A program made the translations under genes and the position numbers. The notes beneath the pieces are model-generated. The model did no database searches. It saw only the letters and a program-made list of their open reading frames with translations, and was not told the origin of the DNA. A stretch of DNA of 64,000 bases from NCBI RefSeq assembly GCF_002854065.1, contig NZ_CP024147.1. The stretch is one strand, 5' to 3'. How positions within the stretch are numbered: position 1 is the first letter of the stretch; the number at the start of each line of letters is the position of its first letter. Source of the stretch: Escherichia coli. Lineage in GTDB: Bacteria > Pseudomonadota > Gammaproteobacteria > Enterobacterales > Enterobacteriaceae. Below are positions 54,315 to 58,425 of this stretch, piece after piece.

Positions 54315-54836
54315 TTACTTAATTACACCACAGGCATAGCGTTCACCGCCACCGCCCAGCGGTTTAGGTTGATCGGACATATTATCGCCGCCAACGTGGA
54401 CCATCAGCGCTTTGTCTTTGATTTCATCCAGTGATTTCAGACGAGGCGCGATGACGGCATTGGTAGCTTTGCCGTCATTATTGACGACCAGTGCAGGCAG
54501 ATCGCCTAAATGCCCGGCACCTTCTGGCCCTTCATGTTTACCGGTATTTTGTGGATCAAGATGCCCGCCTGCGGATTCCGCGGCGCTGGCTTTGCCATCT
54601 TTGGTGGCTGGCTGGCAGCTTCCTTTGGCATGAATATGGAAGCCATGTTCACCGGGGGGTAATGCTTTCAGATCGGGCGAAAACTCCAGACCTTTATCGG
54701 TTTCAGTAATGGTGACGCTACCAATTGACTGCCCAACCCCTTGCGACGTGACGAGGTTCATCTCGACTTTTTCACTGGCAGCTTGTGCGCCGGTCGCAAC
54801 AACCAGCGCCAGAATGGCCAGACTAAAACGTTTCAT
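54315..54836 (-). CDS. sodC: Periplasmic Cu/Zn superoxide dismutase
   Basis: ORF-track frame 54315..54887; start moved to the ATG at 54836 (MKRFSLAILALVVATGAQA), giving 173 aa; His-rich metal-binding motifs present. Confidence 0.95.
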   Translation of the reverse strand: MKRFSLAILALVVATGAQAASEKVEMNLVTSQGVGQSIGSVTITETDKGLEFSPDLKALPPGEHGFHIHAKGSCQPATKDGKASAAESAGGHLDPQNTGKHEGPEGAGHLGDLPALVVNNDGKATNAVIAPRLKSLDEIKDKALMVHVGGDNMSDQPKPLGGGGERYACGVIK

Positions 54837-54916
54837 AGGACCTCCGTTCATTGTGCATTCCTGAATAAGTGTAAACCAGTGACACATTTTTGAACGGCGG
54901 CTATTCCTAAAAGTGC

Positions 54917-55813
54917 TTACGGTACGTCGTACCCCAGTGCCGCTTTACGGATACGAAACCATTGTTGACGGGTCATTTTCAGTGTTTCTGCTTCGACAGC
55001 TGCCCGTACGCGCTCAATTTTACCTGAGCCGATAATTGGCAGCGGCTGCGACGGTAAACGTAATACCCAGGCGTAAACCACCTGTTCAATCGAGCCCGCG
55101 TTTAACTCCTCCGCCACCACAGCCAGTTCATCACGCAGCGGCTGGAAATAATCATCATTAAACAGACGACCACCACCAAGGCAGGACCACGCCATCGGAC
55201 GAACACGCAGTTGTTGCAGTTGGTCGAGCGTGCCATCCAGCAGTAACGGCTGATGTACCGGGGATATTTCCACCTGATTAGTGGCAAGGGTAAACGGCAG
55301 ACGTGATTGCAACAGGGCAAATTGCGCAGGCGTAAAGTTCGATACGCCAAAATGACGCACTTTGCCGCTCTGATGCAGATGTTTGAACGCGTCCGCCACT
55401 TCATCGGCATCCATTAACGGGTCCGGGCGGTGGATTAACAGCAGATCCAGATGATCGGTCGCAAGATTAATTAGCGACTGTTCGGCGCTCTTAATGATGT
55501 GATCGCGGTCAGTGATGTAATGACCAATGACGTTTTCTTCACGCGCGGTCGTCGCGATACCGCATTTACTGACGATTTCCATCCGCTCACGCAGGTGAGG
55601 TGCCAGTTTCAGCGCCTCGCCAAACGCCGCTTCGCACTGATAGCCACCATAAATATCAGCATGGTCCACGGTGGTCACGCCGAGATCCAGATGCTCTTCA
55701 ATAAAACTGACCAGCTGGCGGGCGGACATATTCCAGTCCATCAATCGCCAGTAGCCCATCACAAAACGGGAAAACTCCGGGCCTTGCGGCGCAATAGTAA
55801 TACGCTGAACCAT
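54917..55813 (-). CDS. ydhF: Aldo-keto reductase family oxidoreductase
   Basis: 298 aa. Confidence 0.9.
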   Translation of the reverse strand: MVQRITIAPQGPEFSRFVMGYWRLMDWNMSARQLVSFIEEHLDLGVTTVDHADIYGGYQCEAAFGEALKLAPHLRERMEIVSKCGIATTAREENVIGHYITDRDHIIKSAEQSLINLATDHLDLLLIHRPDPLMDADEVADAFKHLHQSGKVRHFGVSNFTPAQFALLQSRLPFTLATNQVEISPVHQPLLLDGTLDQLQQLRVRPMAWSCLGGGRLFNDDYFQPLRDELAVVAEELNAGSIEQVVYAWVLRLPSQPLPIIGSGKIERVRAAVEAETLKMTRQQWFRIRKAALGYDVP

Positions 55814-55861
55814 ATTCGCTTCCTCTTATCAGATATGAGAGGAGTATACGCAAGATTAGGC

Positions 55862-56101
55862 TCAAAAGAGTGATGGTTGCTCCGGTTCGTCTGATGACGC
55901 TGGCTTATTTGCACGTAATTTGCGCATTAATCGCTGCCGACAAAGGCGCAGCACCTCTTGTTTTTCGCCATCGCTCATTTTATTCCAGTTAAAACGCTCA
56001 TCCCGGCTTCGAAAACAGCCGCGACAAAACCCGCGTTCGTCAGACTGGCAAATTCCCCGGCACGGGCTCTGGACGGGAAAGAACTCTAATTGCTCCGCCA
56101 C
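55862..56101 (-). CDS. ydhL: DUF1289-family cysteine-rich small protein
   Basis: 79 aa with CRGIC...CRGC pattern suggesting a metal-binding fold. Confidence 0.85.
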   Translation of the reverse strand: MAEQLEFFPVQSPCRGICQSDERGFCRGCFRSRDERFNWNKMSDGEKQEVLRLCRQRLMRKLRANKPASSDEPEQPSLF

Positions 56102-56173
56102 TTAGCCCTCCTCAGATAAGATTATTACCATTATTGAAGCTGTTAATGTCCAAAGTAGCAACTTTGCTTGCAC

Positions 56174-56189
56174 TAGACCGACTGGTCTA
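56174..56189. promoter_or_regulatory. NemR-box-like inverted repeat TAGACCGACTGGTCTA upstream of nemR
   Basis: TAGACC-N4-GGTCTA dyad about 15-30 bp upstream of the nemR start; matches the autoregulatory operator as I recall it. Confidence 0.5.
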
Positions 56190-56203
56190 CTACACTCCAA
56201 CAC

Positions 56204-56803
56204 ATGAACAAACACACCGAACATGATACTCGCGAACATCTCCTGGCGACGGGCGAGCAACTTTGCCTGCAACGTGGATTCACCGGGATGGGGCTAAGCG
56301 AATTACTAAAAACCGCTGAAGTGCCGAAAGGGTCCTTCTATCACTACTTTCGCTCTAAAGAGGCGTTTGGCGTTGCCATGCTTGAGCGCCATTATGCCGC
56401 ATATCACCAGCGACTGACTGAGTTGCTGCAATCCGGCGAAGGTAACTACCGCGACCGCATACTGGCTTATTACCAGCAAACACTGAACCAGTTTTGCCAA
56501 CATGGAACCATCAGTGGTTGCCTGACAGTAAAACTCTCTGCCGAAGTGTGCGATCTTTCAGAAGATATGCGTAGCGCGATGGATAAAGGCGCTCGCGGCG
56601 TGATCGCCCTGCTCTCGCAGGCTCTGGAAAATGGCCGTGAGAACCACTGTTTAACCTTTTGTGGCGAACCGCTGCAACAGGCACAAGTGCTTTACGCACT
56701 ATGGCTGGGTGCGAATCTGCAGGCCAAAATTTCGCGCAGTTTCGAGCCGCTGGAAAACGCGCTGGCACATGTAAAAAACATTATTGCGACGCCTGCCGTT
56801 TAG
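56204..56803 (+). CDS. nemR: TetR-family electrophile-sensing repressor
   Basis: 199 aa. Confidence 0.9.
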   Translation: MNKHTEHDTREHLLATGEQLCLQRGFTGMGLSELLKTAEVPKGSFYHYFRSKEAFGVAMLERHYAAYHQRLTELLQSGEGNYRDRILAYYQQTLNQFCQHGTISGCLTVKLSAEVCDLSEDMRSAMDKGARGVIALLSQALENGRENHCLTFCGEPLQQAQVLYALWLGANLQAKISRSFEPLENALAHVKNIIATPAV

Positions 56804-56839
56804 CAGGCATTTTTTATCACCAGACGACCGGGAGCCTTT

Positions 56840-57937
56840 ATGTCATCTGAAAAACTGTATTCCCCACTGAAAGTGGGCGCAATAACTGCGGCAAACCGTA
56901 TTTTTATGGCACCGCTGACGCGTCTGCGCAGTATTGAACCGGGTGACATCCCTACCCCGTTGATGGCGGAATACTATCGCCAACGTGCCAGTGCCGGTTT
57001 GATTATTAGCGAAGCCACGCAAATTTCTGCCCAGGCAAAAGGGTATGCTGGTGCACCTGGCATCCATAGTCCGGAACAAATTGCCGCATGGAAAAAAATT
57101 ACCGCTGGCGTTCATGCTGAAAATGGACATATGGCCGTACAGCTGTGGCACACCGGACGCATTTCTCACGCCAGCCTGCAACCTGGCGGTCAGGCACCGG
57201 TAGCGCCTTCAGCACTTAGCGCGGGAACACGTACTTCTCTGCGCGATGAAAATGGTCAGGCGATCCGTGTTGAAACATCCATGCCGCGTGCGCTTGAACT
57301 GGAAGAGATTCCAGGTATCGTCAATGATTTCCGTCAGGCCATTGCTAACGCGCGTGAAGCCGGTTTTGATCTGGTAGAGCTCCACTCTGCTCACGGTTAT
57401 TTGCTGCATCAGTTCCTTTCCCCTTCTTCAAACCATCGTACCGATCAGTACGGCGGCAGCGTGGAAAATCGCGCACGTTTGGTACTGGAAGTGGTCGATG
57501 CCGGGATTGAAGAATGGGGTGCCGATCGCATTGGCATTCGCGTTTCGCCAATCGGTACTTTCCAGAACACGGATAACGGCCCGAATGAAGAAGCCGATGC
57601 ACTGTATCTGATTGAACAACTGGGTAAACGCGGCATTGCTTATCTGCATATGTCAGAACCAGATTGGGCGGGGGGTGAACCGTATACTGATGCGTTCCGC
57701 GAAAAAGTACGCGCCCGTTTCCACGGTCCGATTATCGGCGCAGGTGCATACACGGTAGAAAAAGCCGAAACGCTGATTGGCAAAGGGTTAATTGATGCGG
57801 TGGCATTTGGTCGTGACTGGATTGCGAACCCGGATCTGGTCGCCCGCTTGCAGCGCAGAGCTGAGCTTAACCCACAACGTGCCGAAAGTTTCTACGGTGG
57901 CGGCGCGGAAGGCTATACCGATTACCCGACGTTGTAA
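56840..57937 (+). CDS. nemA: N-ethylmaleimide reductase (Old Yellow Enzyme family, FMN)
   Basis: 365 aa TIM-barrel flavoprotein. Confidence 0.95.
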
Positions 57938-58017: not shown

Positions 58018-58425
58018 ATGCGTCTTCTTCATACCATGCTGCGCGTTGGCGATTTGCAACGCTCCATCGATTTTTATACCAAAGTTCTGGGCATGAAACT
58101 GCTGCGTACCAGCGAAAACCCGGAATACAAATACTCACTGGCGTTTGTTGGCTACGGCCCGGAAACCGAAGAAGCGGTGATTGAACTGACCTACAACTGG
58201 GGCGTGGATAAATACGAACTCGGCACTGCTTATGGTCACATCGCGCTTAGCGTAGATAATGCCGCTGAAGCGTGCGAAAAAATCCGTCAAAACGGGGGTA
58301 ACGTGACCCGTGAAGCGGGTCCGGTAAAAGGCGGTACTACGGTTATCGCGTTTGTGGAAGATCCGGACGGTTACAAAATTGAGTTAATCGAAGAGAAAGA
58401 CGCCGGTCGCGGTCTGGGCAACTAA
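58018..58425 (+). CDS. gloA: Glyoxalase I (lactoylglutathione lyase)
   Basis: 135 aa beginning [26 protein letters not shown]. Confidence 0.95.

Follow-up and report, generated by a model that had tools for sequence, protein, structure and literature searches.

Results

Organization of the nemR region

The window, a 64,000-nucleotide stretch of Escherichia coli DNA, contains the genes and predicted elements collected in Table 1; the genes were identified from the open reading frames and from the RefSeq annotation of a 100%-identical record. The genes rnt and lhr come next after gloA. The NemR protein encoded in the window matches the solved NemR structure (PDB 4yze) with E = 3.9e-127; among the NCBIfam models, no NemR model reached its cut-off, the best being CurR, whose 196 bits fell short of the required 300. 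In 12 NemR orthologs the sensor residues C21, C106, C116 and K175 do not vary, and across the same orthologs 30 of the 34 positions of the helix-turn-helix region (residues 25-58) are identical. The inverted repeat under study therefore lies directly before a bona fide nemR, which is followed by nemA and gloA.

The ydhL/nemR intergenic region occupies 102 bp (56102-56203), from the nucleotide next to the ydhL GTG codon (56101, minus strand) to the nucleotide before the nemR ATG (56204). This arrangement, with a divergently transcribed ydhL-ydhF pair, is exactly the gene geometry that the initial annotation had described.

Table 1. Genes, promoter elements and repeats of the nemR region, with positions in the window
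Feature	Position	Strand	Remarks
sodC	54315-54887	-	ORFs and 100%-identical RefSeq record
ydhF	54917-55813	-	Aldo/keto reductase family; comes after ydhL
ydhL	55862-56101	-	DUF1289, 79 aa; divergent neighbour of nemR
Predicted ydhL promoter	56133..56161	-	Inferred; -35 TTGCTA (56161 to 56156), 17-bp spacer, -10 TTCAAT (56138 to 56133)
Predicted nemR -35, TTGCAC	56168-56173	+	TTGC in 80/80 loci; next base A in 72/80
NemR operator O1, TAGACC-GACT-GGTCTA	56174..56189	.	Sequence read; arm conservation; RutR ChIP-chip site at ydhM (PMC2475637)
Predicted nemR -10, TACACT	56191-56196	+	T1, A2 and T6 in 80/80 loci; A4 in 77/80
Predicted nemR transcription start	56203..56204	+	On the A of the ATG or 1 nt before it
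nemR	56204-56803	+	TetR-family repressor, 199 aa; RefSeq annotation, PDB 4yze
Terminator-like hairpin GCCTGC-CGTTTA-GCAGGC + ATTTTTTATC	56791..56818	+	Overlaps the nemR stop codon; -11.4 kcal/mol
O2 relic CAGACGACCGGGAGC (also given as CAGACGACCGGgagc)	56821..56835	.	Invariant right arm lost
nemA	56840-57937	+	N-ethylmaleimide reductase; NCBIfam NF007899, 763 bits (cut-off 403); RefSeq annotation
gloA	58018-58425	+	Glyoxalase I; NCBIfam NF007629, 306 bits, passes cut-off

A perfect inverted repeat precedes nemR

The sequence read at 56174-56189 is TAGACCGACTGGTCTA, in which two perfect 6-bp arms, TAGACC and GGTCTA, flank a non-palindromic 4-bp centre (GACT); the TAGACC-N4-GGTCTA dyad that had been proposed to lie directly before nemR is thus confirmed. 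It starts 30 nt upstream of the nemR ATG and is centred 22.5 nt before it. The pattern was matched once in the 64-kb window with up to 2 mismatches allowed, and its 12 specified bases would be expected 0.004 times per 64 kb. A fairer null, weaker than this exact-12-base expectation, asks for any dyad in the shuffled 102-bp region: some perfect 6-N4-6 dyad appeared in 2.2% of the shuffles and a perfect 6-bp dyad with a spacer of 0-10 bp in 18%, and the window contains 274 dyads of the latter kind. The palindrome by itself is only mildly unusual, and it is its conservation across species that lifts it above chance.

Two further repeats were found in the vicinity. A second perfect 6-N4-6 dyad, CAAAGTAGCAACTTTG, lies at 56151-56166, 23 bp upstream of the first (centre to centre), and overlaps the predicted ydhL -35 element. 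Among the 80 enterobacterial loci described below it is confined to Escherichia, and we rejected it as a conserved operator because it is absent outside this genus. In addition, AGCAACTTTGCTTGCA at 56157-56172 forms a 15/16 direct repeat with AGCAACTTTGCCTGCA at 56256-56271, inside nemR (codons 18-23). A simple estimate gives about 0.001 such repeats in a region of 451 bp; the upstream copy is not conserved beyond Escherichia, and the repeat is probably a product of chance.

The site is identical to that of E. coli K-12

From 56105 to 56201, a segment spanning the -35 element, the dyad and the -10 element, the window is identical to the K-12 chromosome (NC_000913.3), so that the dyad has the same sequence as the K-12 site at which NemR binding was studied. 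Only two positions of the 102-bp intergenic region set them apart: 56104, where the window has A and K-12 has C, and 56202, two bases before the nemR ATG, where the window has A and K-12 has G. A 47-nt promoter query was found at 90% identity or more in 5,331 of 5,426 complete E. coli genomes and at 95% or more in all but two, with a match of at least 99% in only 30 of the 5,331. The window strain therefore has a minority allele, located at the predicted transcription start or directly beside it.

The dyad arms are conserved across Enterobacterales at a fixed distance from nemR

We scanned for NemR by alignment, keeping one genome per species, and obtained 80 Enterobacterales loci whose NemR proteins are 67-96% identical, from genera including Citrobacter, Salmonella, Enterobacter, Klebsiella, Kosakonia, Buttiauxella, Cedecea, Providencia and Morganella. 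Both arms are perfect in 68 of these loci, while 10 have one mismatch, 1 has two mismatches and 1 (Kosakonia cowanii) lacks the dyad. Wherever the dyad is present, it starts 29-31 nt before the nemR ATG.

Column information was calculated from a dyad-anchored, ungapped comparison of the 80 sequences. Columns 8 nt or more upstream of the dyad hold at most 0.64 bit (median about 0.14), and the block cTTGCAy-TAGACCGAnyGGTCTA-tTAcAgT mostly holds 1.4-2.0 bits, with about 1.5-2.0 bits in the arm columns. The centre of the dyad is variable (GACT, GAAC, GATT, AATC, GAAT, GATC, GAGC and GACC), as expected of a spacer between two half-sites, and the family consensus is a full palindrome, TAGACCGA/TCGGTCTA, with TAGACCGA as the half-site and TAGACCGATCGGTCTA as the ideal site. 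The half-sites are constrained, the spacer is free and the whole is co-conserved with its regulator; the near-invariant helix-turn-helix region of NemR matches these invariant half-sites. The changes seen in the arms are one-sided and none is compensatory, which favours a protein site over a hairpin.

The exception, Kosakonia cowanii 282A-S69 (locus L043, 2460-2500), retains a promoter, TTGCCA-N17-TAGAGT, with a spacer, TCACAAAGTTCGCCCGC, that contains no dyad. It has kept an intact NemR whose DNA-binding region is unchanged, as well as a second dyad before nemA (see below). From its sequence this locus looks like a natural operator loss, and with nemR intact in the absence of the dyad the site is dispensable in at least one lineage.

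The dyad fills the spacer of the predicted nemR promoter

A consensus promoter scan of 55800-56900 found no sigma-70 site. The nemR promoter was missed because TTGCAC matches the sigma-70 -35 consensus at only 3 of 6 positions, below the threshold of the scan; the -10 hexamer matches at 4 of 6. We therefore assigned both hexamers from their conservation, and with this assignment the dyad overlaps the core promoter: the predicted elements are 17 bp apart, a distance made up of the 16-bp dyad plus 1 nt.

The gap from the end of the -10 element to the nemR ATG is 7 nt, and it measures 6-8 nt throughout the 80 loci as well as in homologs of 45-54% identity. All 80 loci use ATG as their start codon, with too little space before it for a Shine-Dalgarno sequence. 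Together, this short distance and the lack of room suggest that the nemR mRNA is probably leaderless or near-leaderless. A literature search combining 'leaderless' with nemR or its synonym ydhM returned nothing relevant.

The dyad is associated with nemR and not with ydhL

A minus-strand pattern, TTGCnn-N17-TTCAAT, within a conserved gTCTTCAATa, recurs across 49 distinct ydhL-adjacent sequences and probably represents the ydhL promoter, placed back to back with that of nemR. ydhL is the immediate divergent neighbour of nemR in 49 of the 80 loci. Other genes, 0.75-1.9 kb in total extent, separate the two in 24 loci, and ydhL was not in the locus in a further 7, one of which (L033) merely lacks upstream sequence; the dyad is kept in both groups. 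The divergent arrangement is thus not universal. The intervening genes occur in L017-L036 and L057 (Enterobacter, Lelliottia, Leclercia) and in L072-L081 (Buttiauxella, Cedecea and others); in Enterobacter, Lelliottia and Leclercia a co-directional ORF ends just before the nemR -35 element.

These data bear on whether the dyad could be a bidirectional operator through which NemR would also repress ydhL-ydhF. The idea has some appeal, since YdhF, as a member of the aldo/keto reductase family, would be a plausible electrophile-detoxifying enzyme, the dyad lies in the 102-bp region common to ydhL and nemR, and the predicted -35 elements of the two genes are just 6 bp apart. However, the dyad is upstream of the predicted ydhL -35 element, with its centre about 55 nt away from the predicted ydhL start, which is not where a simple repressor blocks polymerase at ydhL. 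Moreover, ydhL lies anywhere from 98 to 222 bp from nemR depending on the genus, whereas the dyad keeps a fixed distance from nemR, and the dyad persists in 30 loci with no adjacent ydhL (24 with intervening genes and 6 without ydhL). SELEX and RegulonDB entries list nemRA-gloA only (PMC5934670), and among the six papers that a literature search retrieved for ydhL or ydhF together with nemR, titles and abstracts pointed to none that ties the expression of these genes to NemR. We therefore consider control of ydhL-ydhF by this site quite unlikely. The proposal of a shared control region stands as a description of the geometry; as to function, the dyad goes with nemR, and we found no evidence of ydhL-ydhF control.

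RutR recognises the same site

The 16-mer is also a target of RutR, the pyrimidine-catabolism regulator, in vivo and in vitro (PMC2475637). The RutR ChIP-chip study prints it for the region upstream of ydhM (as nemR was formerly called), with its centre 22.5 nt from the start codon, and includes it among 16 high-affinity EMSA targets; it matches the RutR box TTGACCAnnTGGTCAA at 11 of 14 positions, with the key A at position 4 and T at position 13 (PMC2475637). As RutR is a TetR-family paralog that binds the 16-mer, binding is not exclusive to NemR. One could then propose that the dyad is primarily a RutR operator, by which RutR would control nemRA-gloA and link the Rut pathway to NemA, an enzyme able to replace RutE, and it fits this proposal that mutations in nemR and in the nemR promoter suppress a rutE deletion (PMC3045373). 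According to a review, however, RutR binds upstream of nemRA-gloA without a role in the regulation of the operon (PMC5297802). The conservation pattern also argues against a primary role for RutR: position 2 is A and position 15 is T in 79 or 80 of the 80 loci, where the RutR consensus has T and A, so that selection maintains a non-RutR sequence, and the site stays at the same distance from nemR whatever the genomic context. Related TAGAC...GTCTA dyads are also found at the promoters of the genes for distant NemR homologs. A site serving RutR in the first place is in our view very improbable.

The weakest proposal, that the dyad arose by chance or serves as a nucleic-acid hairpin, such as a terminator or an RNA element, and binds no protein, could draw on the 18% of shuffles with a comparable dyad, on the non-conserved 6-N4-6 dyad 23 bp away and on the folding of the dyad strand into a weak hairpin (-4.2 kcal/mol, z = -2.4), but it is barely credible and effectively refuted by the conservation pattern, because the arms are near-invariant over NemR proteins of 67-96% identity while nearby DNA is randomised, the 80 loci show no covariation between the arms, no T run follows the dyad, the terminator scan gave no flag there, the dyad is upstream of the predicted start and would thus lie outside the nemR mRNA, and an Rfam search of 55800-56900 at E <= 1 returned only a spurious snoRNA match (E = 0.95).

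The dyad as the operator of NemR

The reading we favour, with a probability of about 93%, is that the dyad at 56174-56189 is the operator through which the TetR-family repressor NemR autoregulates nemR-nemA-gloA. The identities of the genes, the identity with K-12 and the phylogenetic footprint in the nemR core promoter all support the autoregulatory NemR operator suggested by the initial annotation. Published data agree with it. Secondary sources describe NemR binding to the inverted repeat in the nemR promoter and its loss with N-ethylmaleimide, methylglyoxal or hypochlorite (PMC13178969, PMC5297802, PMC7464077), and derepressing operator mutations and a NemR cysteine switch have been reported. 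Genomic SELEX identified nemR as the single NemR target (PMC5934670), deletion of nemR raises nemA 15-fold and gloA 5-fold, with gloA expressed by readthrough from the nemR promoter (PMC3739934), and the rutE suppressors include a nemR-promoter SNP predicted to remove repression (PMC3045373).

In the mechanism that we propose, a NemR homodimer would bind the two TAGACC(GA) half-sites and, because the dyad fills the -35/-10 spacer, the bound dimer would occupy the whole 17 bp and exclude RNA polymerase. While NemR is bound, nemR, nemA and, by readthrough, gloA would be kept off. Electrophiles (N-ethylmaleimide, methylglyoxal, quinones) or hypochlorite would modify the NemR cysteines, and the modified protein would leave the DNA and allow the operon to be transcribed. 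Of these elements, we infer the exact -35 and -10 hexamers, the steric exclusion of the polymerase and the leaderless start.

A second dyad before nemA is truncated in E. coli

The nemR-nemA spacer contains, in nearly all loci, a hairpin followed by TTTTTATTT over the nemR stop codon, in which 4 of 7 pairs keep pairing through two-sided changes. Such a structure is odd within what is described as one operon, and it may act as a partial terminator.

Directly before the nemA ribosome-binding site lies a second, 15-bp dyad, O2 (nAGnCGAyyGGTCTA, most often TAGACGACCGGTCTA), which 75 of the 78 orthologous nemR-nemA spacers (L004-L081) carry in intact form, with one-mismatch variants in 2 further loci. 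E. coli alone has a truncated O2, and its spacer measures 35-36 bp as against 51-61 bp in most other genera. We found no convincing -35/-10 pair around O2 in the other genera; it could possibly act by roadblock, by looping or through a weak promoter.

The 15-mer TAGACGACCGGTCTA, or one-base variants of it, also occurs at the promoters of genes for NemR-like TetR regulators of 37-45% identity (L089/L090, L092-L096), whose neighbours are old-yellow-enzyme, zinc alcohol dehydrogenase and DJ-1 genes. Its presence before regulators of only this identity suggests that the 15-mer may be the older operator of the family. Homologs of 51-54% identity (L083, L086, L087) have the 16-bp type of dyad in the -35/-10 spacer, and in one homolog of 51% identity both arms are changed symmetrically (TCGACC...GGTCGG). 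In L087/L088 and L089/L090 the annotated start codons seem to be placed 45-60 nt too far upstream.

A broader evolutionary scheme can be drawn from these comparisons, in which the E. coli dyad survives from an ancestral two-operator design, with a leaderless nemR, a conserved hairpin and then O2 before nemA, whose right half was deleted in E. coli so as to leave 56174-56189 as the sole NemR control point. We regard this scheme as evenly balanced between being right and wrong.

Discussion

NemR is a textbook redox- and electrophile-sensing switch of the TetR family, and work on the autoregulation of nemRA-gloA through a palindromic operator goes back to 2008. The NemR box of the K-12 nemRA(-gloA) promoter was reportedly defined by footprinting/EMSA (Umezawa et al. 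2008; Gray et al. 2013; Lee et al. 2013), and in line with secondary sources we take the exact 16-mer at 56174-56189 to be this published 'NemR box'. The dyad is an already known NemR operator, with nothing new for E. coli. The parts of this work that might be new are the comparative by-products, chiefly the O2 dyad lost in E. coli and the probably leaderless nemR; in the searchable literature we found no string of O2 or of the operator variants.

The main value of the analysis is one of annotation, as it places the operator exactly in the -35/-10 spacer, assigns it to nemR and not to ydhL, and marks it as cross-recognised by RutR. The by-products, namely the putative second operator lost in E. 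coli, the conserved terminator-like hairpin between nemR and nemA, the probably leaderless nemR mRNA and the operator-less Kosakonia cowanii, could modestly help the design of NemR-based biosensors for bleach or electrophiles and could aid the transfer of the E. coli model to Salmonella, Klebsiella, Enterobacter and Citrobacter.

Compared with known systems, the closest is the NemR box of the E. coli K-12 nemRA(-gloA) promoter, with which the window shares locus, site sequence and position, the site itself showing no difference. The RutR box TTGACCAnnTGGTCAA is likewise a 16-bp dyad with a GACC-N4-GGTC core, but its outer positions are TT...AA instead of the TA...TA of the NemR box, and its position 7 is A instead of G. 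The operator of AltR, a NemR homolog of Pantoea ananatis (PMC13178969), resembles the NemR box in that a cysteine-dependent, autoregulated TetR-family repressor acts on a perfect inverted repeat in its own core promoter. The AltR repeat differs in being CAATCTAC-N6-GTAGATTG and in overlapping the -10 element and the ribosome-binding site, whereas the NemR box fills the -35/-10 spacer, and AltR responds to thiosulfinates, not to N-ethylmaleimide or diamide. With tetO/TetR and other autoregulatory TetR-family operators NemR shares the binding of a homodimer to a short palindrome via N-terminal helix-turn-helix domains, together with repression by occlusion of the promoter, which ends once the C-terminal domain is modified or has bound its ligand. 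NemR and TetR differ in that TetR is induced reversibly by a ligand and NemR by covalent modification of cysteines, and in that tetO1 and tetO2 are arranged in tandem, whereas E. coli has one NemR operator.
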